Below, piece after piece: positions 9,172-52,901 of a stretch of 64,000 nt of DNA. The number at the start of each line of letters is the position of its first letter. Positions within the stretch are counted from its first letter, which is position 1. A program made the position numbers and the translations under genes. Source of the stretch: Takakia lepidozioides (taxonomy: Eukaryota > Plantae > Bryophyta); assembly GCA_030704615.1 (NCBI GenBank), contig CM060731.1, positions 79,050,001-79,114,000 on the forward strand. The letters are read 5' to 3'. The notes under the pieces are model-generated. The model searched no databases. It had not been told where the DNA came from and was given only the letters and a program-made list of their open reading frames with translations.

Positions 9172-11528
9172 TGTCGTGTATCTAAGCATCGTGCCACAAC
9201 ATACATCGCTATCCACGTCCACACATTCTAAGCACACAATCCTAGAAACCTATGCCACAATTAGTAATAAGAGATGAGAAATGAGAGAAGTGGAAGACAG
9301 TGAAAGTCTCAAAGCATGAAACAATCACACTAAGAACAACCCATAGTCCTTCCAAGTGAAATCCACTCTATCACATAAACTAAGTCAAGCCAATGGCACC
9401 TTTGCTAAGGAAATCCACCCTACAAAGCCCTCAACACACACTCTCTCAATACCTAGAGCTATGGAGATGAGGGAGGATCAACTACAAGAAGATGAACCCT
9501 CCTCAACACTCACAAGGAGAAAATCGCTCCCCATGTTCCAAGTAAGGCTTGACACCTCACTTGACATATGAGACCAAATGAAGTCCCAACACACCAAATT
9601 ACAATATAAATATCCAAAATGTCATAATTAACTAGAAGTAGGTAATTCTAGTTAACCATGACTAAACCCATGACAGCTGTCGTGCACCTAAGCATCGTGC
9701 CACAACATACATCACTGTCCACCACACATTCTAAGCACATAATTCTAGAAAGCTATGCCACAATCGCCCCCCCTAACTGGTGATTAGGTCCATCTAACAC
9801 CGGATAGCTGACAAGTATCCATCTCAATAAGATCATCGTTTGGTCTTCAATCGCCCAAGTCCCAGTATCTGAAGTCAAATATCAAGAGGCCGGGTGCAAA
9901 AGTAGCCCCATCGTTAGTTGCCTTCCTACAATCCATTGTCTTCAATTGAGTATCAATGGCATTGAACTCTCGCTAGCTAGACCTTAGATCACTAGTCGAC
10001 CGCATCGTTGTCATGCCCATTACCTCTGTCCGAGGCATCATGGACACAACCATTTTCCATTAGGAACCTCCTCAAGTGGCGGTGTTAAACATCTCATGTG
10101 CCACCCCCTTGAGCATTTGTCACACACCAACATGGTTGCGGCACCACCAGCATGTCCACATAACATGCAAAACAACCTTGCAGGTACCACTGCAAGGTTG
10201 AGACATATCCTTTCATCCACATGTGGAAGGTGACATGGCACACAATTGCGCACATGGTCCTTCCATACCATGTCATCTCGACCCTCCAGAATCAACACTC
10301 ATGAAGGCAACACCTCTCGTACTTGTAGAATCACACGTTCTGCTGTAACATCCAAGGTCGTTGGTGTTGTCTGTTGCAGATACACATAGTCCCCAGGATG
10401 GAAACGCCGAACCCCTGGACGATATCTCCTTCCACGAATAGTGACATACCTCAATATGTCTCGGTGTTGGGCAATAACAAGGTTCTCAAAAGCCATAGGC
10501 GTGACTCTCTTGAATAACTCTGTCCGCTAGTCACATGTCTGTGTCCATACATCCGGATCATCAAGGGTGAGGACTACTGCAACCTCCCTGCGAATAGATG
10601 CAGGCAAATCTGGCTCTAGGCCGAAGAGAAGAAAGTAAGGTGACAAGGAGGCAAGTGACGTTTGTTTGCTAAACCTATAGCAACCAAGGCAGCTGAAGGT
10701 CCCAATCTCCCACGTGTTCCTTCTGCAAACCGTACTTGCGCAAGCCCCTCTTGAATGTCTGAACAAATCTCTCCGCCAAGCCATCAGCCTCGGGATGGTC
10801 CCGAGAAGTAGTGCGGTGATCTATCAAGGCTTGCTCACACAAAGCCTGAAACTCCCCCAAGAACTTTCTCCCCTAGTCCGTGAGTACCTCGGCTGGAGCA
10901 CCAAATTGGCTAAGAACTCGATCTAAGAATGCATACGCAACCCCCTCACTAGCCTTGTCAGGCAATGCCACCAGTTCAATCCACTTGGAGAAGTGTTCCA
11001 CCATCACCAGCACATACTTGTTATGACAAATCGTTAGTGGCAATGGGCCTGCGAAATCAAGACTCCAACGATAGCCCAAACCCATAATGGGTAAAGTATG
11101 CAATTTTTTAGTAGGGGCGTTGAAAGAAGCCCGCACTCTATCACATACCATGCACCTTGTCACTAACTGTTGCACATCCATGTGCATGCCCCGCCACCAA
11201 TACTGCCCTTGTAGCAAACTATGAGTGCATCGCACCCCAAAATGTCCCAACTCCTCATGGGCATGGCATACCAATCGTGCTCGTTGTGTTAGATGAGGCA
11301 CAATCCTCACTCGTCCATCCTCCCATACTCGGAGTAGGTGAGTCCCCTACCGCTTGAACCTCTTGGCTCGTTGTAGGATCCGATCTCTCTCCTTAGCAGT
11401 CACACTGGCTACTGTCTCTCCGGTACGAAGGTAGGCCAACATTGCTGCATCTTTATGCACATCCTTAGCACCACCAAGCTCATCACTAATCTCCGGATTG
11501 TCATGCACACCATCTACATGACCAATCC
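9172..11528 (-). mobile_element. Truncated Ty3/Gypsy element with integrase and PHD finger and an A-B-A split-repeat 3' end (family B, copy 1)
   Basis: Integrase motifs HEELGHFG..CMVC, WSLDFAGP, VLTD, ADGLAER (10299-11310); PHD CMLC..CDKC..WHMRC..WLCP (10038-10298); polypurine tract at 9767-9774; A 9172-9259, B 9265-9675, A 9678-9762. Confidence 0.9.
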
Positions 11529-16900: not shown

Positions 16901-18620
16901 CAATGTTGTAGCAGGAATTATCCAAAAACAGATAACATAGATGTGGAGAAGCTCGTTGGTGAATCTATGGTGGTTTTGTATTGATTTTGACATGTTACTG
17001 TAGGTAGGGTTTGGGGTGTTTCCCGCAAGAACTTCACGCCGTCAGTGTCAGCTGCTTCAGCTGCTAGCAGCAAGGCTGAAGATGTATTCATGGTTTGTAC
17101 ACAGGCATGGATAGCTGAAGGACCAGGGATAGAGTGTGGGTCCAGATTCATAAGAGGGCCGGATTTCAAGTGAAGAAGGTGTATGATCGACATCCAGACA
17201 AAGAAGATTAACACTTTGATAAGGTATGATCTGGACTGAATATGTTGTTTTCATGGCTGACGTGAGGCTTTTCACAGATTCTCACCTCTTTGTCATGGTA
17301 GGCATGATGGTACATCCACAAGCTGTAGTGCCTTTGGATGAGAAGCAGTCCCCTCACAAAGTATACTGCTCGTTTTCTCAAGAGCATACCAATTCTTTGC
17401 CTGCCAGAATGCTACGCTATCCTTTTCACTCTGAAATAGAATCCACTTGTCATGTAGGGTTGGAGTAGCCTTGCCCATCACACCCTCTCTTATTGTGTGG
17501 GCGACAACCTGAGATTACCATGTTTTGATTATTTTCAAGATCTTCAGGAACACTCAATCAGCTGACATGATTGCTGTTAGCTGTGTCAAGTCGCAATCGC
17601 AAGCTTAGAATGGAACCTCAAGGCTGGTTTGGTAGAGCCGGGACTATTCCTCTTTGGATGCTTATTACATGTATTCTTACCTTTGGGCTTGCAATTTTGT
17701 GCAACAGGCCTGATGAACTTGTCGTGCGCATACATATCGCTACACAACTACATCGTTGTCCAAAACCACACAACACATGTGCATACCACACACTAGTATA
17801 CCACTAGTCCACCACTAGTCCAACCACTAGTCCAACCACTAGGCTACAACTAGTCAGTCACTAGGCTGCCACTATGCTGCCCACTATGGCAGTCACTAGT
17901 CCACACAATCGCGATAAAGAAGAAGAATACAAGCACGAGTTCACAAATCTGAAGCATAAACTCATGCATATATAACCTCATCACTCAAATACAAGTCAAG
18001 CCAAGTGCACCCCACGCCATGGGGAATCCACACTACGGCGCCATAGCTAGGCGCGGTGAGGCTCAACTCGAGAAAGATGAGCTTTCCGCGCTTGCCGTGA
18101 AGATAACCACTCCAGGGCCTAAATCTGCCTTGACCCCTGGATTGACACTTGGCCAATCCCAAATGTCAATATGTAAAAGCTAGCTATTTCCTAGCTAGTT
18201 TCACACTAGTGGTAAAATAACTTGACAACTGTCGTGCGCATACATATCGCTACACAACTACATCGCTGTCCAAAACCACACAACACATGTGCACACCACA
18301 CACTAGTATACCACTAGTCCACCACTAGTCCAGCCACTAGTCCAACCACTAGGCTACAACTAGTCAGTCACTAGACTGCCACTATGCTGCCCACTATGGC
18401 AGTCACTAGTCCACACAATTGCCCCCTAGCTGGTGCTTAGGTCCCTCTAAGTCCAGGTAGCCACAAGATGTGATAGTGACCATAGCCTCACTAAGTCCTC
18501 CACCACTATCCCTACTACACTCAAACTCGATAGATCAAGAGGCCGGGTGCAAGAGTTGCCCCATCGTTAGTCGCCGTCTTGCAACCTGTGAACTTGAGCT
18601 GGGATCTCATGTATTGACTC

Positions 18621-20245
18621 CTATGAGCTTGGCCTCCCTTGTCTTGTTAGCTGCCTCCAGTCATGTCCACTGCCACTATCCCAACACAACCAATCTCCGT
18701 CAGGAACCTTCTCAAGAGGTGGTGTCAAGCATCCCATATGCCAACCCCTTGAGCATCGATCACACACCAGCATGGTGGCTGCCCCTTTGGCAGACTCACA
18801 GAGCATGCACCTCAAACCTGCAGGTACCACTGCCAAGTTTGGGTCAACTCTGCCATCGACATTGGGAAGGTGACATGGCGCACAATTACGCACATGGTCC
18901 TTCCAAGTCATGTCATCCCGACCCTCTAAGATCAGGACCCCTGAGGGCAACACCTCTCGAACCCTCAGAATAACACGCCCTGCAGTAACATCCAGAGTTG
19001 TAGGAGCAGTCTGCTGCAAATAAACATAGTCACTAGGGCTAAACCTCCGAACCCCAGGACGATATCCTCCACCACGTATAGTGGCATACCTCAACGTATC
19101 ACGGTGCTGTGCAATGGCAAGGTTCTCAAAAGCCATGGGCATGACTTTCTTGAACAACTCTGCACGCTGATCACATGCACGTACCCACACGTCCGGATCA
19201 TCAAGGTTAAGGACTTGAGCAATGTCCCTACGAATGGCTGCAGGCAAATCCGGCTCTCGGCCAAAGAGAAGGAAATATGGTGAGAAGGAGGCAAGTGATG
19301 CTTGTTTGCTGAACCTGTAGCCCATGGCTAACCAAGGAACCTGAAGATCCAATCTCCTAGGTGTCCCTTCTGCAAGCCATACTTGCGCAAACCCCTCTTC
19401 ACCGTCTGAACAACTCTCTCTGCTAAGCCATCGGCCTCAGGATGATCTCGAGAAGTGGTGCGGTGGTCTATCAAGGCTTTATCACACAAAGCCTGAAACT
19501 CCCCCAAGAACTCTCTCCCTTGGTCCGTGAGTACCTCAGCTGGAGCACCAAATCGGCTAAGCACACGATCCAAGAATGCATACGCAGCCCCCTCACTAGC
19601 CTTGTCAGGCAATGGAACCAACTCAATCCACTTGGAGAAGTGCTCCACCATCACCAACACATATCTGTGATGGCGCATAGTCAGTGGCAACGGTCCTGCA
19701 AAGTCAAGACTCCACCTGTAGCCCAATCCCATGATTGGTAAAGGATGCAACTGTGGTGTAGGGGCGTTGAATGAAGCACGCACCCTGTCACACACCATGC
19801 ACCTAGCCACGAACTGTTGCACCTTTGTATGCATACCACGCCACCAATACTGCCCATGCAGTAAATTGTGAGTGCGTCGCACTCCAAAATGCCCCAACTC
19901 CTCATGGGCATGCCGCACTAACCGTGCACGCTGTGTGGGGTGAGGCAAAATCCTCACCCGACCATCCTCCCACACTCGAAGTAGGTGTATCCCCTCCCAC
20001 TTGAACCTCTTGGCTCGTTGTAGGATCCGATCTCTCTCCATGGCAGTCACAGTGGCTGCCGTGTCTCCCGTGCGGAGGTAGTCCAACACAGCCGAATCCT
20101 CATGTATATCTCTGGCACCACCTGGCTCATCACTAGCCTCAGGGTCCTCAGACACTCCGTCTACAATCATCCCTGTTGTAGGTCCAACCTGACCTCCCGA
20201 TGCCAAGATACACATAAATGCAGATGCGTGCCATCCCGGCACCAT
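18621..20245 (-). CDS. Integrase (HHCC + DDE) with C-terminal PHD finger, frameshifted
   Basis: HAHEELGHFG..CMVC, WSLDFAGP, VLTDQG, ADGLAERVVQ; CMLCESAKGAATMLVCDRCSRGWHMGCLTPPLEKVPDGDWLC. Confidence 0.92.
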
Positions 20246-20287
20246 CTCCTCGTCCGTCTCACCATGCCACCGAGCTCCTGTGTCATC

Positions 20288-20640
20288 CTACTGGCTCATG
20301 CATGGATTGCGACTCAATCCATCCGCATCCCGATTGACCAAACCTGGTCGATGCACAACCTGAAAGTCATACTCTTGGAGTATGAGTGCCCACCGTGCAA
20401 GCTTCCCCGTAAGCTTGTCTGACTCCATCAACCACTTGAGTGGCTGGTGATCCGTGACAAGGGTGAAAAGATTGCCATATAGATAGCACCTGAAGTGTGC
20501 CACGGCCCACACTGCAGCTAAGCACTCTCCCTCATTTGAGCTGTACTTAGCATCTGCAGCGTTGTTTGAGCGGCTAGCATAAGCCACTACAAACTCTCTT
20601 CCCTCATCATCCACTTATATGAACACCGCTCCAAGCCCCA
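20288..20640 (-). CDS. RNase H of family-B copy 2; its N-terminal DWS motif lies across the nested insertion at ~27608-27630
   Basis: VVAYASRS..YSS.EGECLAAVWAVAHFRCYLYG..FTLVTDHQPL..LARW..ADGLSR; the two flanks rejoin as DWSMVGLGAV. Confidence 0.92.
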
Positions 20641-20641
20641 G

Positions 20642-23600
20642 TGTCGCGCACCTCACTTCGGTAAGCTCCCCTTCAAGTCATAGTTACTCGCTTTGATGCG
20701 CGCGCCTAACTCCCAACCTGGCCGCCCAGGCCAACTTGGAGCTTCGGCTGCTCACCGGGACATAACAGTCCCCCCTTTGCTTCCCTCTAAACCCTCCACC
20801 TAATTGGGACTAGGAGAATTCCCTTTGGTAGATGGCAGTCCAGAACAGCTCCCCACTCTTTGGTCGCTTTCCGGCTCGCTCGCTTACTCACTAGTTTTTG
20901 GTCACCAACGGGCTTGCACCGTTCTCGGGGTTACTACTCCCTATATATACTTCTGTAGCTGTCCGCAGGGGTTCCACAACTAGCCATGCCATTTTATGGC
21001 GAACCACCACGAAAACCCTCGACTCCCGGTGATGAGTCGCGGTGAGTCTTGGCCCGCTCACCACGGCCCCTATGGACCGTGATGAGTCCCAAGACTCCCC
21101 ACGACTCCCACCACGAGGTCTCCGCCTCAGGGTGAGTCCTATGCTACCCCCACTAAGTCCCGCTAAGCTACCACCACCCCTTGTGGAGCCACCCCCACCG
21201 CACCCCGGTGTGCGGGGCTCCACCTAGTGAGCGCCTCCCCCTCCTTGAGTGCCTTGGGCACTCAAGGGTGCTTCAGCTCCCCATACCTATCGCTGCCACT
21301 GCCCCCACCACAGGGGCAGCCCCACTTGTGTCCCGGCCCCCTGCCCTCAAGGCAAAGGGCCGCGACACACACCCCTACCAACAGGGAGTCGATGTCCCCA
21401 TCGACTTGTCCATTTTGTAGAAACGAACATCCAAGTTGTGGCGTCCCATATCAAGGAGTTTGTTTCCGCACCATGGCGTCCCATGGTAAAGAACCAAACC
21501 CCACACTTGACTCTACTCTCCACTAGCTAGTTCGGCCGACTTCCTCCAAGTCCCGGCCAAGGGTGGAGCCTCTCCAGCTCCTCTCAGTGCACTCTTCTTG
21601 GCCTACGTCAAGGCCAAGGAACGATCCTCCCCGAGGATCGAATCGCCTTACTGCAACAACATTGCTTGCGATCGCTCATGATGCCGCTTTTGGCATTACC
21701 TTGAGCAAGGGTTCACCTGGAACCGTCTTTGACTAGGACGATAACCTTGAACCAACCGTTCGCCCCAATCACTACAATTGGGTCCGCCTTGGAATGCTGG
21801 CCTGAGGTACGGGAACACGCCGAAGCCGCATTTCGACTTCGTCCCGAGGCTACACGATTATAGTACGTGAACGGAAGCACGTAGCTTCCGCGTTAGCCCG
21901 CACTACAAGGCAACCCCCTCGGTAGCGCAGTTATAGTACGCGCACGCGCCAGGTGCGCACTAGCACGTGAACTCCTAAAGAAGGCACAAGTTTCCTTGCC
22001 CCTTGGATGGGAGTCACCCGATTTCGGCACTGCGCAAACACACGATTAACCCAATTTACCTCTCCCACTTTTGTAAGCTAGCATGCATTCTACACACTAG
22101 CCAACCACACCATGCATCACCATTCCAAACACAATAGGACGCACAAATTTGGAACCCATTTCCTTTATAACAAATTTTTGTACAATACAAGTTTTTGCAA
22201 TCGGATTCCTGAGCTAGCTAAACCGGGCTAAGCATGCATTTCCTCCCCCACGCTCCAAGGTTGATGTCCCCATCAATGCTTCTTCCGCTTTTGAGGTCGC
22301 CCTTCGAAAGCTGTAACCGCCTCGGATGCGTTTCCCATTTCTGAGGCACGCACCCAAGATGCCTCCACATGATGATAGCCCTTCCATTTGACGAGATACT
22401 ACTCCGTTTCTCGGTTCCTGAACCTCCTCGACTTAAGTATTGCCTCCACCTCGTACTCAGGTTCATTTTCATGATCCAACAGCATAGGTGGCGGACGCAA
22501 CACTTGATGCCGATTCGGACGCGCTTCATCTTTGAAGTAAGGTTTCAAAAGGGAGACATGGAATACTGGGTGCACCTTGCTGTTTGCCGGCAGCTCCAAT
22601 TCATACACATCCTCATTCATAACCTTCCGAATGCGAAAGGGTCCCGCATACGGAGGTACAAACTTTGGACTCACTTCCGGAGGTAGTCGGAAATTCTTGA
22701 TGTTCAACCAGACCTCTGTGCCTGCCTCAAACTTCACTTCCCTCCGCTTCCGATTCGCCTGCCTTTCATACCGTTTCCTAGCTTTGGCAATATTGTAATT
22801 TGCGAGCTTCAACAAACGCTCGCGTTCTTCCAGTACCGCCGCTACTGTCGGTTCCTCAACGTCCTGGGCGGCCCACTTGTCGGCACCAGAGGTGCTTTTC
22901 CATAGACCAATACGAAAGGGGAAACTCCCGTTGCGGAGTGTTCTGTGTTATTATAACAGAACTCTGCCGCGTCTAAGTGTTCCATCCAGTCTGATTGGTC
23001 TGCCGACACGTAATTCCGCAAGAATTGCTTCACTACGGAATTCACTCTTTCCGTTTGGCCGTCCGTCGTAGGTCGGAAGGCGGTGCTCATCTTCAGCCTC
23101 GTCCCCATCTTCTTCCAAAGTGCTCTCCAGAATTTACTCGTAAACTTTGGATCGCGGTCCGAGACAATATCCTTCGGGACTCCATGATGCTTTAAGACGT
23201 GGGCGAAGTAAAGTCACCATATCTCCTGCGCCGTTGCCATCTCCTTGGTGGGGATGAAATGGCCCATTTTACTGAACCTATCTACCACCACCATGATTGC
23301 ATCGAATCCTTTTGACAGCGGCATAGCAGTCATGAAATCCATCGAGACGCTTTCCCAAGTCCTCTCTGGAATCGGCAAGGGTTGTAACAGCCCCGCTTGC
23401 TTTTTGTACTCGCTCCAGTTTTGTTGGCATGTGGTGCATGTCTTGACATACTCCTCTGCCTCATCCCTCAGTTTGGGCCAGAAATACTCTTTCTTCAAGA
23501 GTGCCGCAGTGCGCTTGGCTCCGCCGTGGCCCGCAAGCGGGCTATCATGGCATTCTCTCAAGAGGCTATCTCTGATCCCTCCCTTCGGCACGTAGAGACG

Positions 23601-27607: not shown

Positions 27608-28560
27608 CCCCACCATGCTCCAATCCTATGCAGCTGAAGTGACTCCCCCTGATAGTTCGACTCGGATAGGCGCCGAGGTCAACCTCGCCTTGAGCTCTTG
27701 GAAAGCTCGTTCCTGCTCATCTTCCGCACTACCCTCTCCTGGTCCACCTGGTCAGCTTGGTTAGAGCCTTTGCAATGGGACTAATCCCTTGACAAACCGT
27801 CTATAATAGTTGCCAACCCATGAAGCTCGAACTCGGCTCAGATCCGTGGGGCGTGGAATTGTGCATGGCCTCTACCTTAGTCTACTGTACCCCCATCCTC
27901 CAGGATATATCATTGACCCAGATACTCAATCTGGGTTGTGAAAACTTGCACTCCCCGGATGCACTTCATATGTGCTCTCTCAAGCGCTTCATACCACCTG
28001 AAGGTGTCCTCTCATGCTCCTCCATCGTAACACTGAGATGATGATGTCATCTATGTAGCACCGAGCAAAGTCCACCCCTGCTAGAATCCTATCCATGACT
28101 CTCTGAAACTCTGCAGAAGCATTCTTAAGCCCAAATGGTAAGACCGCCACTGATATAGGCAATCCTTGCCGTGCTCTTGATCCCCAGAATGCCGTCTTCT
28201 GCTTGTCCGCCTCCTTGATTGGCAACTGGTGATATCCGGATCGTAATCCAAAGTGCTAAACGGCTTAGCATGCCCGATGGCAGCAAAGAATCATCCTCTA
28301 GTGTTGGCAGGCATACTTATCGGACTTGGTCTGACGATTTAACAGGCGGTAATCACCGCACATACGTCTCTCCGTCATTGCCATAGACATCCTTCTTGGC
28401 TGGCATCACTGTGGCTGAAGCATACTCTCTCACCAGAGAGCTCCACCAAACTGCCTCCCAGGATCTTGAGTCCTCATCTGAATCAAAGACCTCTCCATGT
28501 CACTGTATCTATAGGGTCTCTGAAAGATTGGCGTCTCAGTGGCCAACTCATACGGATCTC
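27608..28560 (-). pseudogene. Reverse transcriptase of family-B copy 2 (frameshifted)
   Basis: RMCGDYRLLN, SGYHQLPIKEADKQKTAFWG, LPFGLKNASAEFQRVMD, CYIDDIII. Confidence 0.92.
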
Positions 28561-29129
28561 TTGACCACTTCAGTGTCAAGTCTCTTTCAACGAAGGCAAA
28601 CAATTCCTGTAAGCCCTCAGGAACCGCCGTCTACGTCGTCTCTCTCCTCCGGTGACAATGGGTCCAATGTCAGGCTCCCAATGTCCTCCGTAACTGCAAC
28701 TTAAGTCCAGTGGGCTTGAGGTGAGACGCGTCCAGTGGTTGCTATGTTGCAACCTCTTGAGCAGTACTCCCTCCTGCTCATTCAATGACAAGGCGTCATC
28801 CTGCCCCATCATCTCATCCTTGAGAACCTCCTCAACCCGAGAAGAATCCCAACCTCATCCATCACAGCCGCTTGGTCTGCCAACTCCCTCCTGAACCTGA
28901 GCACCTCCTGTGCCATGGATGCATGCCACCCCATGGATGCATGCCCCCCGTGTCCTCACATTCTCGCCCTGCCAACTCCCTCTGTTGAACCTAGAGCACC
29001 TCCACGTGTTGCCATGGATGCATGCACCCCGTGGTACTCACATGCTCGCCCCCACTCATGACCTGTACTGTCTCGGTAGGCAGAGAGGACCATTGGGAAG
29101 TGTACTACGCACTCTGCATTGCTCAGCAG

Positions 29130-29900
29130 AGCCAAGCTGATTTAATCCAGGTCAAAGCAATTGAGATCCATTGCTTGCCCCAACCTTGACGACGTGATGC
29201 CTCAGAAAGAGACGACACCGCGTGGTACAGTGGTAAAACCATTGCCCGCTCAACGCTCGTCAGCATTAGGCTCCACTAACTGCCAATTGAGCATCCCACA
29301 GGAGGCGGTCCACTATCCGGAAAGCATGCGATCCTGGGAATCGAATGAGCAGTGTAGGTAATGCTGCTCGGGGGGGACCCACCTTGTGACACTGCAAAGG
29401 CGAACGGTCATCGTGTCTCACACGCTGAGACTGCATCCCTGTGTCCAGAATGTTATCCACTGTGAGATGTGCATGGCACTGCACCCCATCAAATGCACGC
29501 TTGAGCAGTGCGGGTGGCATCAAGTTAGTCCACCATAGCCGTGGACGATGAGCCGGACCCCACTGTAGCTGCATCTAGCAACAATGTGACCCAAGCCGCT
29601 GATGAATGCCCTTGGCAGGGCCAACCTGCCCCTACCAGATCAATGGAGCCACCCCTCCAATCCTGTGCCCCCAGCAACGAAATGTCTGCTGGCAAGGCCT
29701 GCTGATATCCACGAATTGCAGACAACCGACAACAAACTCAGGGACCTCTGCATCACCAACTGAGCAACATGGCGAATTGAAACGCGTCGTGCAGTCTCAT
29801 CCCTCTCCACATACAGGTAACGCCGAACTCCGTACACCTGCCTGTAATACAAACAGCCAATCCGGTGTTGATCCTGCCAAACAAGTCCAGAAGACAAATG
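29130..29900 (-). pseudogene. C5-cytosine DNA methyltransferase domain between protease and RT (frameshifted; motif VI apparently deleted)
   Basis: Read across frames: motif I LLDLFG(R)INTGL (~29895-29860), YLYVERD, motif IV IDLVGAGWPCQGHS (~29645-29605), motif VIII LLDAATVG..AHRPRLWWTNL, motif IX EPNADER-ERAM(G)F, motif X SEASRRQ-LGQAMDLNC (~29205-29158). Confidence 0.88.
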
Positions 29901-30339
29901 CTTCATCCGGATACTGCCACACAATAGGTGTGGTGTCCAATGGAGACAATTGAGGTGGTCCTGGTGCAATCCCCGCACTCTCCTCCTCTCCTGACGGTAC
30001 AAAAGCCTCCACCCAGGCTTGTTGCACCCGTCGATCAGCATCCCGCTGCAAAATCCTTTCTCGTGCCCCACAATGGGGGGTCGAGCAACCATGGTAGGCA
30101 CCTCGCGCCATACCATACATGTCCATCCTGCTCTCCCGGAGGTGGTACATCACTCTGAATGAGCATGCCCTCAAGCAACTCTCTAGGCCAACTCACTTGC
30201 CCCTGCCCCCGCTGTGAATGCTGCTAGTGTCGGCATCTTGCCTCGCTGGGCAACCGCAACTCTCCTCCTATGAACGTCACAGGGAGCTGCACAACGCCGG
30301 CCCTCCCCTGACTGCCATGCAGGCCTATAGGAAGCTGAC

Positions 30340-30830
30340 TCCTCCCAAAAATCCAGGGTGAAGCCCATGGGTACAACACTGCCCCACCAACCAGGACATC
30401 CTATGAGACCGCGTTGTCCAATGGCCTTGGCTCGCATCACTGAGCCATCTGTAGGGCTCCTCCCAAAAATCCCTCCTCCCAAAAATCCAGGTGAAGCCCA
30501 TGGTGTAACAACACTGCCCCACCAACCAGGACATCCTATGAGACCGCTCTGTCACAATGGCCTGGCTACGCATCCCTGAGCCATCTGTAGGGTGATCCGG
30601 CCGTAGTCTGATAGCCAACTCACGCCGTGTCATGCCCCGAGCGTGCTCGATCCTCCCAGAGACGTCTGAATCTGGAAAGGACAAGGCTCCATATCCGCCT
30701 CCTGTGAGGCCCAACCTGGCAATAGCAGCTTCTGGCCCAGCATCAATGGCTGAGCTCCCGATCCAACAAGACCGCCAGTGGCCGGTACCCTCTTGCCTGC
30801 CGGTCCACTCAAACAGAAATGCCATCCTGG
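30340..30830 (-). pseudogene. Aspartic protease of family-B copy 2, with a ~130-bp tandem duplication
   Basis: LLD/SGAQPLMLG across a frameshift; block 'aaaaatccagg..gagccatctgtaggg' at ~30347 and ~30481. Confidence 0.7.
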
Positions 30831-31199
30831 TTGTCTAACATGACAACTCCAGGTGTCACCATGGCGCGCTCAATGGCTGGCCTAGCTGGCAGCTCCATCA
30901 ACCTGGCAGGTGCAGTTGCCATTGGGCTCCGCTGTGGCAGTCTTGACCCTCAAATCCGAGGATCCCTCGGCACTACACCTCCCCGTATCTCCGCAGAAGA
31001 TGAAGTAACCTAACCTCCCACTCTCACAGAGTGTAGCTGCCAGCCTGAACACCTCAGCTGCTCTTACACCCCCTGGCGTCACAATCATGGTAGCCGAGAA
31101 CAATGGAGCCTGGCACACAGATGTGGCCGCTCCTAGCAGCACACTACCTGCCGTAGCCTTGGCAACACTAGGTAGTGTGCTACCCGTGTAGCTCTCCCC

Positions 31200-32330
31200 A
31201 ATGGCATAGTAACCTTTGCATTGGTAACAGTCGGGCGAGAACTAGGTGCCATGGATGGCGTCGACACTGTCCCGCCAATGTGAATAACTGAGGAAGCCTA
31301 GCCTGACGGCTTGCCTCCCCACGCTGTGGATCCACTCCACCTCTGCACCTCGTGGCTCAGGAACTCGTGCTGCTCCTCGAGTCACGGCTGCAGCAGACTC
31401 CACCTGCACTAGTGGTAGTGCTGCTCCACACATGAATCCCATGCCTCCCATATCTCCTCCCTCAGTAGTAGGATGTGGACCATCCGGCCTTAGAGCCAGT
31501 ACCACCTGAGCTGTCGCCATGGCAGCGGCCTCTGCTCTAGCTGCTGAAGCCGGTTGGCCATGCCTTGGTCACACCCTGATCTCCGCGTCCTTGGCCATGT
31601 TGAGCTTGCCCTTGGCCTGCACCTCGTGCTGGCCACCTCGTCCTCTCTGGGATGCTCCACCTCGCCCCCGGCCACCATTTTTCCCTTGAACTGGCCTGGC
31701 GCAACTCAGGATGCAAACCATAAACACTGGCCTCTCCATGCCCGTGTTTGCCACAATGCCCACACTGCAACTATCCCATTGCTACTTGCTGAAGCTGCCG
31801 GTGCAGCGGTAGTTGTAGCCACTGCCCTCGTGGCTCTAGTGCCCCTAGTGATGGAGACATATCGGGTGACCAGTACATCCTCCACTCCTCGATCTCAACC
31901 TCATGTGCCCCCGCCTGAACTCATGGTAATCATCCATAGGCAGCCCCTCCTCAAGTGCCGAAACAACCCCTTCCATGCCATGAAAGGCGTAAATAGTTGT
32001 GGATTGCGCATTTGCTGCAAATCACACACCACTATCAAACTCTTGGATAAATCATCCAACTCGATGGTGCCACTGCCCCAGAGTACCTTCGTGGCCCCTT
32101 GGTAGCTCCATACATCTCCTCCATTGTGTCCCACAACAATGGCAAAGAAACACTTGCACCGCCGGTAGGAGTCCTCCTGATTCACAATCCGAATCAGAAC
32201 CTTCCGTAGAAGACACGGAGGTGAAGGTGGCCTAAACCGCACACCTCGTCTCGTGTACCCACTAGTATCGCTAGTGCTCAAACCGTCACTGTCCCAGCAA
32301 CTAGTGGCACCCTCCGTGTTGACACTCAAC
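31200..32330 (-). pseudogene. Gag remnant of family-B copy 2 with zinc knuckle
   Basis: QCGHCGKHGHGEAS knuckle at ~31730-31770; position upstream of the protease. Confidence 0.65.
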
Positions 32331-37500: not shown

Positions 37501-37680
37501 GTAAAGCAAAAACTGGGACTCGTGTGCCTCCTCCACGGCCCACTCCTTTGCTGACAGAAGGTTTATTCGCCCTCCCACGGATTTGGGCGTTTCCGACACT
37601 CGTAAAACTTCGCCACCATTCCCACATGGCAGCGTGACTACTCTCTTGCGGCCATCTATGACCGCTCCGGATTTGCTCAA
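34560..37680 (-). CDS. Pol (RT, RNase H, integrase, chromodomain) of family-A copy 2, split by a few frameshifts
   Basis: ORFs 35902-37680 (YIDD, TDASD), 35438-35935, 34560-35453 ([12 protein letters not shown]) and 34564-34794 (chromodomain). Confidence 0.93.
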
Positions 37681-39180
37681 AAGGTCATCCCCAAAATGAG
37701 ATCCACTCCATCGATCTCGCAGATAGTGAAGTTCTCACGTCCCTCCCAACTCCCCAGTTGAAGAGGAACATCAAACGCCAACCTTGTCGCCAACTGAGGT
37801 TCTCCTTTGGCAGAGCGCACCTCAATAGAGGCCCCCACGTCACTTGTCGGGAGTCCCAACTTTCGCGCCGCCGCCAGGCGTCATGAAGGAGTGCGACGCT
37901 CCTGTGTCCACCAACAACGACACGTTAGTTCCGGATATTATCCCATCCACGAACAATAACTGACTCCCTTTACGCAGGGCGCCAGTTTCCTGATACAACT
38001 CACAAGAATAGTTGCCTACCTTGCAAGTCCTGGCGACCACCGCTTCCACCAAGCGACTGATGGTATCTTCCGACAGCTCCGTGGTCGCCCGAGTCATGTT
38101 CAATTGCCGGGGCTTCGTGCACTTCTTGGCCATGTGCCCGGGCTCCCCGCAATTGAAACACACTCCATCAAAGGTCGCCTTCTGTCCGCCATAAGCCGCT
38201 CCACCCGCTTTTCCTTTCGAAGCACCGGGTGCCGCCTTGACGTGTGAAGGCCCTCCCTTCGATTTCCACGTGCCATTTTCGCCGCGTGGCCTATCCCACT
38301 TCTTTTCCGGTCGGAGGAGTCACCTTCCCGCCGGGTCTTCTTGTGGTTCAGCTCCGTACGGCCTTGTCTCTCACCCCTAGGGACATCCGAGAAACATTCA
38401 GCTCTCTCAATTGCCTCGTTCAAAGTCTTGGGTGGCTTCTCCTCCAACTTCCGCCTAGCCCATGGGGCCAGTCCCGCCACAAAGTTGAAGACCATTTCTG
38501 GTTCTGCCATGTCCGCGACTTCGAGCAACAGCACATTGAAAGCCTGGACATACCCCCGAATGTCATCTGTTTGCTTCAAATTCCTCATCTTGTCCCGGGC
38601 AAGCCAGGATGCGTTGAGGGGCACAAACTGTCTCTTCATCAATTCCTTGAACTCACTCCAGTTCAAGGTTTCCGGGCTTGGGCCTCGGTCGTGAAGGCGT
38701 TTCTGCCACCATTGTTGAGCATAGCCCCTCAAATAGGTGGGAGCCACTTCCACCCGATCCTCGTCACTCAACTTGGCCGCCCGGAAGTACTGCTCTAGCT
38801 CCAGGAGCCAGGTGTTGAGTGCCTTCCGGTTTCGAACGCCCTCAAAGGTGCCGGGTTCCTTAGGCTTCACCTTAAACTTTGCCTTAGTGGAAGTGGCATT
38901 AGCCGTCTTCAACACGTCTTTCAACGCCCCGCCAAACTGCGCCAACAACCCTTCCCAAAAGGCTGCTGGCATGGGAGGCATCTCTTGGTTTGTCGGAGCT
39001 CTCGAGGATTCCTCGGGCTCCGACTCCTCGGATTCCTCCCGCTCTTGAGCGGCCTCGTTTTCGGAAACATTCATCGCTTCCTCAAATGGCCGCCTCGGTG
39101 ACACGTCGCCCCCATCGGGCTCACCGGGATCATCATCTTTTGGGCCGTTCCGCTTTCGCTTCGGCTTGCCCGACCCCATG
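37677..39180 (-). CDS. Gag and protease of family-A copy 2
   Basis: Retrotransposon Gag ([20 protein letters not shown]), [14 protein letters not shown] knuckle, [11 protein letters not shown]. Confidence 0.9.
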
Positions 39181-39961
39181 ATGAGGCCGATCCCAAGGAC
39201 GATCGCGTACTGAACTCTAAGCTCTGATACCAATGTCGCGCACCTCACTTCGGTAAACTCCCCTTCAAGTCATAGTTAACCGCTTTGATGCGCGCGCCTG
39301 ACTCCCAACCTGGCCGCCGGGCCAACTTGGAGTTTCGGCTACTCACCGGGACATAACGGTCCCCTTCGCTTCCTCTAAAACCCTCCACCTATTTGGGACT
39401 AGGAGAATTCCCTTTGGTAGATGGCAGTCCGGAACAGCTCCCCACTCTTTGGTCGCTTTCCGGCTCGCACGATTACTCACTAGTTTTTGGTCACCAACGG
39501 GCTTGCACCGTTCTCGGGGTTACTACTCCCTATATATACTTCTGTAGCTGTCCGCGGGGGTTTCATAACCAGCCATGCCATTTTATGGCGAACCACCACG
39601 AAAACCCTCGACTCCCGGTGGTGAGTCGCGGTGAGTCTTGGCCCACTCACCGCGGCCCCAATGGACCGTGATGAGTCCCAAGACTCCCCACGACTCCCAC
39701 CTCGAGGTCTTCACCCCATGGTGAGTCCTATGCCACCCCCACTAAGTCCCACTAAGCTACCACCACCCCTTGTGGAGCCACCTCCACCGCAACCCGGTGT
39801 GCGGGGCTCCACCTAGTGAGCGCCTCCGCCTCCTTGAGTGCCTTGGGCACTCAAGGGTGCTTCAGCCCCCCATACCTATCGCCGCCGCTGCCCCCCACCA
39901 CAGGGCAGCCCCTCATGTGTCCCGACCCCCTGCCCTCAAGGCAAAGGGCCGCGACACTTAG

Positions 39962-42140
39962 GCAGTCCACCAGTGCCTCCACGAGTCAGCACAGGCCGTC
40001 CATAGGTCAACACGGGCCACCACAGACCAGCACAGGCCCACACAACTCACTGGTCACAGCCGTCACAGTCCCACAGGCCACTGGGCACAGCCTGTCACAG
40101 CCCCTCATAGCCATCACAGCCTGTCACAGTCCATCACAGCCCCACAGGCCACAGGTCACAGCCCGCCACAGCCTGTCACAGCCCCTCACAGCCCGTCACG
40201 CTCGCCACAGCCCCTCACAGCCCCAAAGGCCTCAGGCACGGCCTGACACAGCCCCTCACAGCCCGTCACAGCCCCAAAGGCCTCAGGCACGGCTTGTCAC
40301 AGCCCCTCACAGCCCCAAAGGCCACGGGCACAGCCTGTCACAGCCCCTCACAGCCCGTCACAGCCCCACAGGCCACTAGGCACAGCCTGTCACAACCCCG
40401 CACAGCCCGTCACAGGCCCACAGGCCACTGGGCACAGCCTGTCACAGCCCCGCACAGCCCGTCACAGGCCCGCAGGCCACTAAGCACAGCCTGTCACAGC
40501 CCCTCACAGCCCCTCACAGCTCGCCACAACCCCTCACAGCCCCAAAGGCCATGGGCACAGCCTGTCACAGCCCCTCACAGCCCGTCACAGCCCCACAAGC
40601 CTCAGGCACGGCCTGACACAGCCCCTCACAGCCCGTCACAGCCCCAAAGGCCTCAGGCACGGCCTGTCACAGCCCCTCACAGCCCGTCACAGCCCCAAAG
40701 GCCTCAGGCACGGCCTGTCACAGCCCCTCATAGCCCATCACAGCCCTAAAGGCCACCGGCACAGCCCCTCACAGCCCATCACAGCCCCCAAGGCCACCGG
40801 CGTAGCCCGTCACAAGCCCTCACAGCCCGTCACGACCCCGAAGGCCACCGGCACAGGCCCTCACAGCCCTCACAGCCCGTCACAGCCCCGAAGGCCACCG
40901 GCACAGCCCCTCGCAGCCCGGCACAGCCCTTAAGGCCACCGGCGCAGCCCGGCACACAGCCCCTCACAGCCCCAAAGGCCTCAGGCACGGCCTGACACAG
41001 CCCCTCACAGCCCGTCACAGCCCCAAAGGCCTCAGGCACGGCCTGTCACAGCCCTCACAGCCCCAAAGGCCACGGGCACAGCCTGTCACCCCCACAGGCC
41101 AATGGGCACAGCCTGTCACAGCCCCGCACAGCCCGTCACAGGCCCACAGGCCACTGGGCACAGCCTGTCACAGCCCCGCACAGCCCGTCACAGCCCACAG
41201 GCCACTGGGCACAGCCTGTCACAGCCCCTCATAGCCCATCACAGCTCGCCACAGCCCCTCACAGCCCCAAGGCCACGGCACAGCCTGTCACAGCCCGTCA
41301 CAGCCCGTCACAGCCCCACAGGCCTCAGGCACGGCCTGACACAGCCCTCACAGCCCGTCACAGCCCCAAAGGCCTCAGGCACGGCCTGTCACAGCCCCTC
41401 ACAGCCCGTCACAGCCCCAAGGCCTCAGGCACGGCCTGTCACAGCCTCTCACAGCCCATCACAGCCCTAAGGCCACGGGCACAGCCCCCAAAAGGCCACC
41501 GGCACAGCCCCTCACAGCCCATCACAGCCCCCAAGGCCACCGGCGTAGCCCGTCACAGGCCCTCACAGCCCGTCACGACCCCGAAGGCCACCGGCACAGG
41601 CCTTCACAGGCCCTCACAGCCCGTCACAGCCCCGAAGGCCACCGGCGCAGCCCGGCACAGCCCGTCACAGCCCTTAAGGCCACCGGCGCAGCCCGGCACA
41701 GCCCCTCACAGCCCCAAAGGCCTCAGGCACGGCGTGACACAGCCCCTCACAGCCCATCACAGCCCCAAAGGCCTCAAGCACGGCAGGTCACAGCCCGTCA
41801 CAGCCCGTCACAGCCCCAAAGGCCTCAGGCACGGCCTGTCACAGCCCCTCACAGCCCGTCACAGCCCCAAAGGCCTAAGGCACGGCCTATCACATCCCCT
41901 CACAGCCCATCACAGCTCCAAAGGCCATGGGCACAGCCTGTCATAGCCCCTCACAGCCCCTCACAGCCCCACAAGCCACTGGGCACAGCCCACAGCCCCA
42001 CAGGCCACTGGGCACAGCCTGGCACAGCCCGTCACAGCCCCACAGGCCACTGGGCACAGCCTGTCACAGTCCATCACAGCCCCAAAGGCCTCAGGCACGG
42101 CCTGTCACAGGCCCTCACAGGCCGTCACAGCCCCATCCAT
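39962..42140. repeat. GC-rich satellite built on a 10-bp 'tcacagcccc/tcacagcccg' unit with a ~750-bp higher-order duplication
   Basis: Continuous cacagccc variants; the blocks starting at ~40217 and ~40966 are collinear. Confidence 0.95.
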
Positions 42141-42970: not shown

Positions 42971-44389
42971 AGATATCAGCCCCCTATCTTGGCTCCTTGG
43001 CTCCTTGATGCTCTCTAAGACAAGACTAAGCACTCCACAGCCTTTGCCAAGCTCCTGAAACCCTAAGGCTTACATTTCCAGCCACAAGACACTTCTCTTG
43101 TGGTGCAAGAGCTCTTCTTCCAAGCTCTGAAACCCTAGGTGCACATTCCATGGCCTTGCCGCACCTCTTAGCTCCTATTCCAGCCCTGCTCTTGCCATGA
43201 CAAGAGCCCTCTCAATGCTGAAGCTCGAGATTGAAACCCAATCTCACCATACTCCACAAAGTGCACTGATTTGCCCCAAGCCAAATCAGCCCTTTCGCTT
43301 GGTCTTGCAATCCTTCACACAATGAAAGCTCGCATTCCCAAGTCCAGTTCTCAGCTTTGCCACCAAAGCCACTATAACCTGCTCTTGACTGGTCCTCTTC
43401 CCAATCGTGCTTGCTCATGCATGTACACAATTTGAAACCATCAAGGTGCTCTGGAATTACCTGCAGCATGGTACTTTCATCTCTGAAGCTGAAGATCAAA
43501 TGCCAAGGTCTACCACCTCGTAACCCACATCGCCTCCACTTCTAACAACCAAGAGCTCCACGGTGCTCCTTGCATAACAACTTGGTTTCTCTCATTCTCA
43601 AGCAAAAACCACAAGTGCTACAACTAACTCGTATCTGGCACTCACAGATACGAGCTCATCTTTCTCGAGTGATAAAGAAGAAGAATACAAGCACAAGTTC
43701 ACAAATCTGAAGCATAAACTCATGCATATATAACCTCATCACTCAAATACAAGTCAAGCCAAGTGCACCCCACGCCATGAGGAATCCACACTACGGCGCC
43801 ATAGCTAGGCGCGGTGAGGCTCAACTCGAGAAAGATGAGCTTTCCGCGTTTGCCGTGAAGATAACCACTCCAGGGCCTAAATCTGTCTTGACCCCTGGAT
43901 TGACACTTGGGCCAATCCCAAATGTCAATATGTAAAAGCTAGCTATTTCCTAGCTAGTTTCACACTAGTGGTAAAATAACTTGACAAACTGGAGAAGGCT
44001 TCTGTAAGGCTGACAACTAATTATGATGCGTTGGATATGGCAAACAAAGTGTGTATCATCTAGAATGGTTCTTGTTGTTTGGAACTGGGTTGGTTGGAGA
44101 GGTGTTTTGTAAGTTTTGTAGTTTTGCAAAGTGCTTTTCATGAGTTTCATCCATAAACGTGTGTTAAAATGTCTGGCTTTAGAACAGTTATGTTTTGATA
44201 GCTTTCATAGTTATGTGCTAATGACTGCTAATGAAGGCACCTTCTTCAATTTCACCTTGTTTTCCCCTCTTATCAGAATCGCCCCTAATTATTCATGTCT
44301 GAATTCTGCAAGTTAGCTGGTTGAGTGAAGCTTTGATAGTTTGGAGTGACTTTGACATGATTCTGCCAATGTGACAACAGGAAAATATC

Positions 44390-46712: not shown

Positions 46713-47364
46713 TGTCACGGACATAGCCCAGAAGAACTTACCAGGAGTAAATACCAGAAGTTATCAAGTTACCATGTTACCAAAAGTTACCATGATTTAC
46801 CATGATTTGTCATGATCTACCATGATTTACCATTACTTACCAAGTTACCGAGAGTTTACCAAATTACCAAGAGTAACTTGGGAAACTACTCAGGAAGCTT
46901 CATTTGGAGGAAACTTCTCCATCAAGATACCTCATTTGCTTAAGAAAGCTTCTCCATCAAGAAACCTTTGTTTAATCTTGGAAACTTCTCCAGCAAGAAA
47001 CCTCCATAGGGGAAGCTTCTTGGGGAAGCTTCTTAGTAGCCAGTATATATAGGAGGCGAGACTGGACACTCTTCAGTCTCGCCAACACCAGTTCAAGCTA
47101 CTCTTGTTTCCAGTTCCCAGTACTCCAGTCCAATTCCCAGTACCCTAGCCCAGTTTCCAGTATCTGGTACTCCAGTCCAGTTTCCAGCCTTCCAGTATTC
47201 AAGTCGTGTTCCAATATCTTGTACTCTTGTTCATTGTTATAAAGATCGGTTTGATTCATATTTACTCATCGTGCATTCGGCCACGCCGACCTTGACTTCT
47301 TGTCTAGCTTTGTACCTCTAGTCTTATCTCTTGTTTGTGTTCAGTCATGTTCTCGTTCTTGACA
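46713..47364 (+). mobile_element. Solo LTR of family C
   Basis: TGTCACGG...TTGACA, flanked by GTTTG on both sides. Confidence 0.92.
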
Positions 47365-47989
47365 GTTTGTGCATTTCTAATGCATGATTAGTTCTCTTGT
47401 ATGACATTATATTCGTATGTACTAGTCGACTTACTACAAACACCAAAACTTCAAAGCATGAATCACTAAGAATGATTGTTCAAGTAATTTCGAGCACTTC
47501 ATTTAAAGTAGTAAAGCAGTGGTTGCGCCAACTTCCGCAGTCGCAATTGCTACTGGGCATGTAGCACTACAAGTTATGTGGTCTACTACCACGTGGCGCC
47601 CCGGGCCTGTGGCCACGTGGCAGTAGTGCTGCTCGTCGTGGCGCCGCCACGTCGACGTCCACATCGTCATCCACGTCCGCGTCCATGTGTCATCGTGCTC
47701 CGGTGAGTTGGTCCACTCATCCGGAGGGAAAAGTCAAAGTCAACCCAAAAGGTCAGACACACGGGCGGCCCGCCTGGTTACGCCACGTGGTTCTTCAGCA
47801 TTAATCGCATTAATTGCTGAGCAATTGTTCGCGCGTCTGCGTCCTTTACCACTCCAATCATTGGATGTCCAACCCAACTACCACGTCTGTTGTAACTAGT
47901 CGTTTGTAACTTCCAGTCGCTCCCAGTTTTTTTTGACTTTTACGACTCAAAATGAGTCGTTACACCAGTGGTAAATGACACAAATGCTT

Positions 47990-50846
47990 CTAGTGGGTCC
48001 CTGCAACACACGCCAAAACATCTATGGGGCAAAACCAAAAAACTTGCAGTTTTGGTTCTTTCATGTTTGGTGCTAGTAACTTGCCAGTGAAGCAAGGTGC
48101 AGGACTTCCTTTACCTTTCCTGATGAGTGCTTTGCATTTATCCTTGGAGACTCCAACCAAGGCAGAACAACGAACCATGGAAGCAGGACCTGTCCGCTGA
48201 ATCCTGAACAATGCATCGGAAAAGTCTTGTGTGTCTCGCACTGGATTTCCCCATTGCATTGACTGAGGAGGGATAACAACATGTGGATTTGTCTCACAGA
48301 AAGTCGAAGAACCAGGAATGTCATGATTTGATTTGGAGCTAACAAACCTAGATGGCTGGCGTGGACTGGGCATCCCAGTGGCGTACACTGGAACGGTCTT
48401 TACATTCATATCACACCGCCAAGATTCGTTTGGCCCACCATGCTCATCGCCTAACTTGCGTTTGACTGGAACAGTGCGATTGTCTCCCTCCAATTGAACC
48501 CCCCTTGTGTGCATGGGTGTTCCAGCTACTATGTCACGTACAACCTTACCCATTTTTGCTGGGCTATTAGATCTAGTTGTTTGACGCAACATGAGCTCCT
48601 CTTTGTCGGGCCCCATCCCCCATGTCTTTCCTGTGGTGTGCCTGTAAAATGTTGCCTGTTGCAGAAGAGCTTGTGACATGTCATGCATGGTGGCCTCATA
48701 TAGATCCACCTTCATTTTTTTCCCATTGCCTGCTGTCTTCCACCAAGCAAAATGGACTGCCTCGGACAAATTAGTGGTAGGCATATCTGCATCTGCCTCC
48801 ACATCCATGTCCTCTCTCATCCATTGGCCCCACATTCGATATCTGTAGTGCCACCATGCAAGCCATGAATCCAGTTTTGGCAGACTCTTTTCTGTGCATG
48901 CTCCTGAAGAGAGCCACCAAGCCCGAATTGCAATGTATGTGGTTGTAACATCCTCCAAGGTAGCACTATCTTTCCATTCATAACAGAGCTGAGTGTGCCT
49001 TTCACGGAAGTCCTCCAAGATGTAGTCGTTGATGTGTCTTCGGAGGCTTTCAGCCCAATGATATAAACATGTTCTTTCTTTACCTTCCATTGGGACATTG
49101 GGATCAGATCCATAAACTCTTCGAACAGCAGTCCAATTCGCTCCTGTTACATCTGCCTTGAAGCCAGCAAAATTTGGTTTGTTCAAGCCAGCAAGTTTTT
49201 CTTGTTCATTGATCATCTCCCAGAATAACACCTGAGCATCTGCATCCTCTGTTTTCTTATCGCAAATGGCAATGGTCATCATTCGCTTGACATATGGTTC
49301 ATAGACATGACATGCAAGAGTTGTCCAATCCTTGATGCGTTTGACATGGTCAAATACTACCCAACTTGTGCGTAGATCCCCCTCACTCATGCGACGCACA
49401 AGATCAACACCACTCCCGGGACCAGCAACAGACATCTTGAAAACATGGGGGAGATGAGAAGTATGTTGGCCTGGAAGGAGATTGCTGTGAATGAAATGGT
49501 ATGTACTCAGACGCTTTAACTCCAATATGGACATGATGGAATTGACACGTGCAGATGCGACCTTGTTTTTCACATTGGGGCTACAAACATGGGCAAACTC
49601 TTCAAGAATGTCTTCCAAAGCCTCTTCCTCAAGACGTACTGTCTCTGTGCCATCAGCCACAAGAACTCGGTCAATCAAGGGCTTCTAGGCCATTGACAAG
49701 GAAATAGCTCCCGGGGTCGACCATGGCTTCATCTTAACATGCTCTTGAATCATGCTTGATGCATTTTCCGCAGCCTCTCCATTCTCGCCCTTGGCACATG
49801 GATGGTTATGAAACCCAACGTGAACTGCAACATGTGTATATGTTGGAAGGGAACTTGTTACTTGCCCCACAATGCGCCTCACAGAAAGGTCTTTCTTTGC
49901 AGAAACTACACTTGAACTGGTTGAATGGAACTTGGGCTCCTGCAATGAACACCTTGTCTGCATTGCCTTCCCAATAGCGGTCATTCTGTTCTCCTTCTTT
50001 CTTGAAGAAGGGGCAAGTGCTGCTTTGACATATGAGCTTTCCAACACAAAGAACCTTACTACATTTCACATGATCTGGAACACTAAACATATTGTAGGTA
50101 TTGGTCTTGCACCAAAGATGACCATCAAACTTGCGGTCCATGCCTTGGAGGGACTGTGAACGGTCTATACAAAGTTTGACCACGGGGGGGAGTTCGTGGA
50201 TCACTTTTCCATCAAAAGCTCGAGGAAGACACCGAACACGATGCACTGGAATGTGACTATAGTCCAAGGTAGAAAGCTCTCCTTTTGATCCATTTCTCCG
50301 AGCAGTGCCCAAGATACTCAAAATGGATAGCACACCAGAAGGAAATGCAGATGTAGCCTCCCCTGCTAGTTGTGGAGACGAAGATAAATCCCTCGCAGAT
50401 TCGCAAACAATCATATGTGGTGTTGTCCAATGGAGTTTTCTGAGGCTTCATGTCGTGAAGCAAGACCGTATGAGCAGATGAGGAAGGTTGGGATCCACAA
50501 AATACACTCTTAGAAACCTCAACACAATCCGAATTATGAGACCCCAAGCTCGCCGAATGTGCAACCTCCTCCTTCAATTTACAACTCCCATTTGTTGCAA
50601 CTTGTTCCTTCTTCCTTGCAATAAAAGTGTGACTTTCATCATGTGACTGTGTATAGCTCGTACCTGTGACACGGTACTTGGAGAAAGTGTCTGGAAACAA
50701 ATCCCATTACTTTTGGCCGTCATTGAATACTGGAAGCAACACTGTAGAGGCAGCATCATCTCCATCATCCTCCAAAAAAACTGAATCAGGAACAAGTTTG
50801 AATCTATTGCATAACCAAGGTTCTGGGATAATGCACTTGTTTCCAT
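47990..50846 (-). pseudogene. Mutator-like (MULE) DDE transposase with a Cys/His-rich, GCM-like N-terminal domain; frameshifted and 3'-truncated
   Basis: VVFDHVKR, FKAD...ANWTAVRRVY, CLYHW (CxxH), PTTNLSE in the 562-aa ORF; upstream DGHLWCKTNT..C.GKLIC..C..C..C..H..FHNHPC. TIRs not found. Confidence 0.78.
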
Positions 50847-52610: not shown

Positions 52611-52901
52611 GGTCGGAGGTCCTCTGTTGGGATGCTCAGGCCTGTATTCTGCTCCAAGTTGTAGGCTATGAAAGACAGGATATTCATGGAATTAGTTGTC
52701 CAAATTCATTTGTTTTCTTCATGCAACCATGACACTGAACTGCTCTTTTTACATATTATACATTCACACATTTGCTCTTCTCATACACTGACATCCTGAA
52801 CTGTTTTGGTCTTTGGAATTAGGAAACTACTACTACAACTGAAGCTGTGGAGGCCGGGACGTTTGTAACCATTATTGACGACATTGATGCAGGGAATTGG
52901 G

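Follow-up and report, generated by a model that had tools for sequence, protein, structure and literature searches.

Priming of reverse transcription by the 5' end of an element's own RNA, as in Tf1, is a known mechanism. The Tf1 primer is 11 nt long (PMC7175516). Among plant LTR elements 12% are predicted to prime themselves, and most of these belong to Tcn1 and TAR (PMC6317226). Additional file 5 of that paper gives the prediction for 83% of 1500 Tcn1 elements, all of which (100%) are listed with a chromodomain and with a 5-bp duplication. The same file gives it for 89% of 203 members of the TAR lineage of Ty1/copia (Houba, Osr-1). Other described systems resemble our locus in their repeats or their integration. 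The 2018 description of KnitGypsy-Dnmt3 states, in the legend to its Fig. 4c, that the repeats are arranged as in DIRS while the domains are those of gypsy (PMC5890265). The text consulted and three supplements of that paper give no primer binding site (PBS), priming or integration mechanism. A 2026 preprint (10.64898/2026.05.21.726589) merely names the Gypsy-DNMT3 lineage in its accessible part. Gypsy-7a_cRei of Chlamydomonas is described as a PHD-bearing gypsy with 'LTR subparts' (PMC9940879), and the integrase of foamy virus reportedly cleaves the palindromic junctions of 2-LTR circles (PMC1180852). Our literature search, with most subscription journals, Repbase reports and theses outside its range, found nothing on priming or integration in the Gypsy-DNMT3 lineage.

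The window, meaning the whole 64-kb stretch of DNA that was analysed, contains an element that can be compared with these systems. Features are on the minus strand unless noted. Comparison of the window with itself shows that the element lies on the minus strand and reads B, internal region, polypurine tract (PPT)-A-B-A. Judged by its domains it is a Gypsy-DNMT3-type retrotransposon, with a DNMT remnant, RT, RNase H, integrase and PHD. The 5' B repeat (43670..43986) runs from TG to CA and is 98.4% identical to the 3' B repeat (17913..18227), which lacks the terminal A. It would consist of distal U3, R and U5. The inner A repeat (18230..18417) would be the proximal U3 and is abutted by the PPT (18418..18429). 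The terminal A repeat (17720..17907) ends in CA. A 4-bp target site duplication, AACT on the plus strand, is found on the 5' side (43987..43990) and on the 3' side (17716..17719).

The coding region can be followed from one end to the other. A search by tblastn with ORF1 of the relative L030 and the Klebsormidium protein P0045 recovers a broken gag zinc knuckle, protease and C5 DNA methyltransferase (29290..31770), of which the broken methyltransferase remnant takes up 29722-29290. The broken RT (27608..28615) resumes at 20647 beyond a nested insertion. Residues 87-430 and then 427-859 of P0010 match RT pieces on the two sides of that insertion. RNase H, integrase and PHD finger follow in frameshifted form (18621..20647). 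Since pol runs on across the nested insertion at 20640-27608, the 5' B is tied to the 3' end. The order gag-PR-RT-RH-IN with a DDE integrase (rve) is that of gypsy, and the closest solved structure is Ty3 Gag-Pol. The TG...CA ends, the PPT and the 4-bp duplication are those of an LTR element. The ends are B...A-B-A rather than two identical full LTRs. A C5 DNA methyltransferase belongs to the polyprotein, as the remnant in the window and as Pfam PF00145 in L030. About 2.1 kb of degenerate tandem repeats occupy the 5' leader (40021-42135). A second subfamily is present as its 3' part (9172..11518), with a PPT, A' (9762-9678), B' (9675-9265), A' (9259-9172) and a homologous site at 9498-9481; its PBS is missing.

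The window holds other repeats as well. A chromodomain gypsy is present in three copies that are 94-96% alike (20640-27608, 32981-39957 and 52901-58176), with LTRs of ~730 bp. Two of the three are nested in the element described here, and the two that were checked have a TGG-type PBS. A fragment of another chromovirus, not close to the nested family, lies at 58273-59634 on the plus strand and has an integrase and a chromodomain. A ~600-bp repeat occurs three times (11529-12079, 46715-47369 and 60232-60859), and one copy starts where the match of the element at 9172 stops (11518). These are possibly solo LTRs. Going by motif, we take 6961-9159 (minus strand), 13917-14606 and 47990-50447 (minus strand) and 15295-16984 to be LINE-like RT fragments, SWIM/MULE-like transposase pieces and PPR-like repeats.

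Relatives were collected in a metagenome scan, and the best 80 of 443 confirmed loci were used. PPT-A-B-A is found in 22 of these 80, and PPT-A followed by other DNA in 17. The remaining loci mostly end too early or are too diverged, and some loci are one insertion seen twice. Family 1 consists of 13 loci, or 11 distinct insertions, that have a 5' B and a PBS. L030 stands for a third family. It reads PPT-A-B-PBS (internal-A-B-internal), which may merge copies. Two long ORFs (protease and DNMT; RT-RH-IN-PHD) lie at 976-8226 of L030, so that of all the copies L030 is the likeliest to be intact. Family 2 (L052, L058, L061, L067, L070, L072, L078) gave no 5' end, and the element at 9172 lacks one too. 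Family 2 has a hairpin after TATAAT within B. It is placed like the primer hairpin of the other families and, if the folding model is right, predicts the family 2 PBS. The 17 copies with PPT-A and no 3' B (L004, L008, L014, L033, L044, L045 and 11 more) are predicted to be unable to replicate. Possible sources of the B...A forms are one-LTR circles, recombination between A repeats and collapse during assembly. There are also B-A units with no adjoining internal region in L008 (about 332-740) and L057 (581-902, minus strand), as B-B recombination would be expected to leave.

Close named relatives are liverwort proteins (Riccia, Calypogeia) at 81-84%, with Klebsormidium and chlorophytes more distant. 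P0045, which has DNMT, RT, RH and IN, matches the pieces in the window at 28-56%. A tree of rows chosen by likeness to the query separates a 42-row clade that includes P0045 from 3 chromovirus rows at 100/100. The integrase of the window falls outside those three rows, in a tree that holds no other gypsy lineages and no labelled Tf1 or Tcn1 references. Viral contigs were scanned too and gave no relatives.

The initial annotation proposed that an 18-nt site beside the 5' B replaces a tRNA PBS and pairs with the element's own LTR. The pairing is real. Positions 43653-43670 (plus strand) are the exact reverse complement of 43824-43841, and the match ends at 18 nt on either side. The complement in the 5' B (43824..43841, with a core at 43836-43824) is the predicted self-primer. 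The annotation was right that the 3' B carries a further exact copy, but this lies at 18066..18083 and not two bases away at 18064-18081. It was also right that the PBS adjoins B. However, 43670 still belongs to B, being the terminal A of its CA end on the minus strand, and the PBS in the strict sense comprises 43669-43653, directly after that CA. With up to 3 mismatches allowed there are 3 matches in the window against 0.04 expected from 100 shuffles, and we reject a chance origin. The absence of a TGG-starting PBS is borne out: no TGG directly follows B in the window element or in 12 relatives. Both nested chromoviruses checked do show a TGG-type PBS, so such sites are visible in this window when present. 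ARAGORN finds no tRNAs in the 64-kb window, and there are no Rfam matches over 43300-44100 at E<=5. It must be noted that 18 nt is the match length of the window copy. Public contigs of the same family vary at pairs 14 and 18. In the rows listed for the unphased contigs of run X1, which is possibly the window's own source, pair 14 (43657) is altered in 107,352 of 481,455 depth (~22%) and pair 18 (43841) in 439,649 of 440,379, the depths being taken from contigs.

Each of the three families has its own PBS sequence, and each PBS is matched by a site in its own B. The site lies 146-173 nt upstream within B (154 in the window element). Compensatory change between the arms was the check that the initial annotation had suggested, and it is found across families. 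When pairs are anchored by script at the CA end of B, the window element differs from family 1 at 5 of the first 12 pairs and from L030 at 4, while family 1 and L030 differ at 7. All of these pairs are still Watson-Crick, so every one of the 4-7 differences is compensated. This compensation in three families supports self-priming of the window element by its own RNA, with no tRNA, as had been suggested. Within family 1 covariation was not above shuffles (77 and 82 of 500). Its 11 distinct copies keep 123 of 132 cells paired at pairs 1-12. Pairs 13 and 15 are paired in only 4 of the 11, and 47 of 55 cells are paired at pairs 16-20. The full pairing is 18 long in the window, 16 in L030 and 17-20 in L013 and L044. 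Since pairs 1-12 are kept and those beyond are variable in family 1 and in X1, the conserved core appears to be ~12-13 bp.

We argue that the site is the PBS of a Gypsy-DNMT3-type retrotransposon that probably primes in the manner of Tf1, its RNA supplying the primer from its own 5' end. Transcription would start inside the site in B (~43836 here), and the first ~12 bases of the RNA would pair with the PBS. The primer would then be cut free, by the element's RNase H if Tf1 is a guide. As is usual for LTR elements, the minus-strand DNA would then transfer to the 3' B, and the product would be A-B-internal-A-B.

The predicted position of the start is what would tie the primer to the 5' end of the RNA. 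In 10 of 12 relatives the end of the site is preceded by a TATA-like box at a distance of 40-42 nt, and the other 2 have an indel. The box reads TATAAA or TATAAT in 7 of the 12, TATAG in 4 and TATGAA in 1. A TATA-to-start spacing of the usual length was used to place the start. With the box spacing of the relatives, the start is predicted inside the site, 12-14 nt before its end, and usually falls at a CA or TA step. By analogy the start of the window element would be at ~43836, also at a CA step. A TC-rich box (43858..43864), a pattern picked after viewing the sequence, takes the place of the TATAAA/TATAAT of the relatives, 40 nt before the end of the site. Neither the window element nor the element at 9172 has a canonical TATA at the expected place.

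One can imagine a scenario where the 3' copy does the priming. The RNA would be ended or cut at 18066, and its 3' B copy would fold back, or a second RNA would take its place. We consider this unlikely. The initial annotation raised it on the grounds that the only clear TATATA in B lies downstream of the 5' copy of the complement. The TATATA is where it was said to be (43727..43732, no strand assigned). However, it is found at that place in none of 13 other B copies (the element at 9172, L030 and 11 of family 1), and more likely it is part of R/U5. The box that is conserved in relatives is the TATA-like one upstream, and a start after TATATA is not supported. The lack of a canonical upstream TATA in the window element itself counts on the other side, as does a pairing that reaches upstream of the predicted start.

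Predicted folds bear on the same question. When the RNA of L008 or L014 starts at the site, the predicted probability of pairing between site and PBS is 0.93-0.94. The value is 0.0 when the bases upstream of the predicted start are included, and these fold across the site. Opening the site is dearer with upstream bases in the B copies of 9 of 10 relatives, and by at least 3 kcal/mol in 8. Since the upstream bases close the site, the 3' copies of the relatives would be shut in a hairpin, if the model holds. The window element differs. It has the same sequence at the 3' copy as at the 5' site, and opening costs 2.8 kcal/mol with upstream bases against ~10 without, so the 3' copy is not occluded. 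Folding its 3' B together with the PBS as two strands gains 15-17 kcal/mol, and by this prediction the 3' site is available for pairing. Occlusion is not seen in the element at 9172 (2.4 vs 2.5) or in the 5' copy of L013 either. A GCTTGACT-type motif (43752..43760), present in 14 B copies, is predicted to pair with 43823-43818, which are the bases just 3' of the primer. The predicted probability of this pairing is 1.0 in the window, 0.82 in L030 and 0.92 in L044. It is below 0.3 in the other 10 family-1 rows, 3 of which were scored on the wrong partner.

Priming by the 3' copy would also make the rest of the cycle awkward. An RNA that starts below TATATA and ends at the 3' site would omit ~120 nt of B. 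The first strand transfer would have no repeat R to use. A cut at the site would detach the template of the first jump, or an extra jump would be needed. A copied primer should give extra repeats that are inverted, not direct. The initial annotation saw in 3' priming a reason for the extra B, but a 3' B is required anyway as part of an ordinary LTR. Since A adjoins the PPT and B adjoins the PBS, we read A+B as a single ordinary LTR. Reverse transcription would then give A-B-internal-A-B, and the 3' B needs no special cause.

A slightly less probable alternative keeps the 5' copy and lets it prime from a longer RNA or from scattered starts. The primer would be 16-22 nt long or would be freed by two cuts. 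We doubt this. It would account for matches of 16-20 nt, for the two changes, at pairs 14 and 15, that distinguish L013 from L044 and for the pairing at pairs 16-20 in family 1. It does not sit well with a mismatch at pair 13 that is common to 7 of the 11 family-1 copies, with the mismatch at pair 14 in ~22% of the depth of the window's family, or with the upstream bases that make the site fold on itself in L008 and L014. Least plausible of all is priming by a tRNA fragment or another host RNA, with the internal complement as a structural or regulatory helix. Half-tRNA priming is known from plant copia lineages (PMC6317226). Here, however, each of three unrelated PBS sequences is matched by the site in its own LTR, and there is neither a TGG nor an Rfam match over 43300-44100.

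The oddity of the layout is the left A, which is placed at the right end. The junctions suggest how it got there. The A|B joint (18226..18231, no strand assigned) has the form CA-NN-TG, and in many other copies it is the palindrome CA-GC-TG. The ends of the element are exactly the two halves of this joint, which makes it the putative integrase site. The B|A junction (17908..17912) has bases that resemble the end of the PPT and vary among copies. Most commonly it is the end of B plus 1-2 bases from the end of the PPT. It has 5 PPT-like bases in the window element, 3 PBS-like and 2 PPT-like bases in the element at 9172 and an insertion in L017. Run X1 has three variant forms, the commonest at 88,271 of 285,782 depth. 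Such a variable junction would be expected if ragged cDNA ends were joined there. An exact 4-bp duplication flanks 4 of 7 full-length relatives, and in the others it is off by one base (2) or by two (1). In the window element and in 10 distinct intact relatives (the truncated L011 and L012 were omitted) the 5' B has no A before it. The opening would thus be directional, and we disfavour a 2-LTR circle opened at random at one or the other of its A|B sites.

The split ends likely arise at integration and not at priming. Two more speculative steps would complete the cycle. Ragged cDNA ends would be joined at B|A, and integrase would open the CA-NN-TG palindrome in the interior, where A meets B, to give B...A-B-A. 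The A|B site on the PBS side may be double-stranded first, which is a candidate reason for the direction of opening.

Self-priming is already known, so taken by itself the 18-nt match is of modest interest. More surprising is the layout, an LTR that is permuted and has a putative attachment site in its interior. All the end signals of an LTR element are present, yet the attachment sites would be inside U3 and the joined cDNA ends inside the element. The productivity of LTR-circle DNA is a debated point in retrovirology. If our scenario is true, it is a natural high-copy case where DNA like an LTR circle is productive and not a dead end, and it offers a testable model for making split-direct-repeat elements. 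Each step could be tested by mutation on its own, since the primer, the PBS, the palindrome and the junction are all short, well-delimited sequences.

The terminal repeats of PAT, Ngaro and TOC1 are in the order A...B-A-B, and these elements use a tyrosine recombinase. The window element has the same repeat order, but with a DDE integrase, TG...CA ends, a PPT, a PBS and target duplications. No tyrosine recombinase was found in the L030 ORFs scanned, which have an rve integrase instead. A recombinase element of the Ngaro/PAT kind is rejected on the DDE integrase, the PPT and the target duplications. Taken together, the Gypsy-DNMT3 elements would be a self-priming lineage outside the chromoviruses with integrase sites away from the cDNA ends. 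Ragged ends would be joined, and integrase would always open CA-GC-TG by the PBS-side B. End-joined LTR DNA would then be the normal substrate, and the PAT/Ngaro layout would have been rebuilt with a DDE integrase. For this joint reading we see the chances as evenly balanced. The foamy virus palindrome, as far as PMC1180852 describes it, consists of joined LTR ends, whereas the palindrome here would be a heritable site inside U3. Unlike in foamy virus, the joined cDNA ends would stay buried inside the element.

As in KnitGypsy-Dnmt3, the DNMT is inside the polyprotein together with a gypsy RT-RH-IN (PMC5890265). The repeats are split in the window element, and the DIRS-like layout of KnitGypsy-Dnmt3 is compared by the figure legend alone. 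The window element differs from KnitGypsy-Dnmt3 in sitting with land-plant relatives. The lack of a TGG after B sets it apart from the tRNA-primed plant gypsy clades Phygy, Selgy, Chlamyvir and OTA. TAR differs in having the copia domain order, ordinary LTRs and 5-bp duplications. The closest match in priming is to Tf1, Tf2, Tj1 and Tcn1, which in the accounts consulted also have a PBS after the 5' LTR that is complementary to a site in the LTR and use no tRNA (PMC7175516, PMC4600332). The core reported there for Tf1/sushi elements, ~11-13 nt, is like the ~12-13 bp found here. Unlike Tcn1 and Tf1/sushi, the window element has a PHD and a DNMT, no chromodomain, a 4-bp duplication and split ends. 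It likely adds a further self-priming lineage beside Tf1/Tcn1 and TAR.
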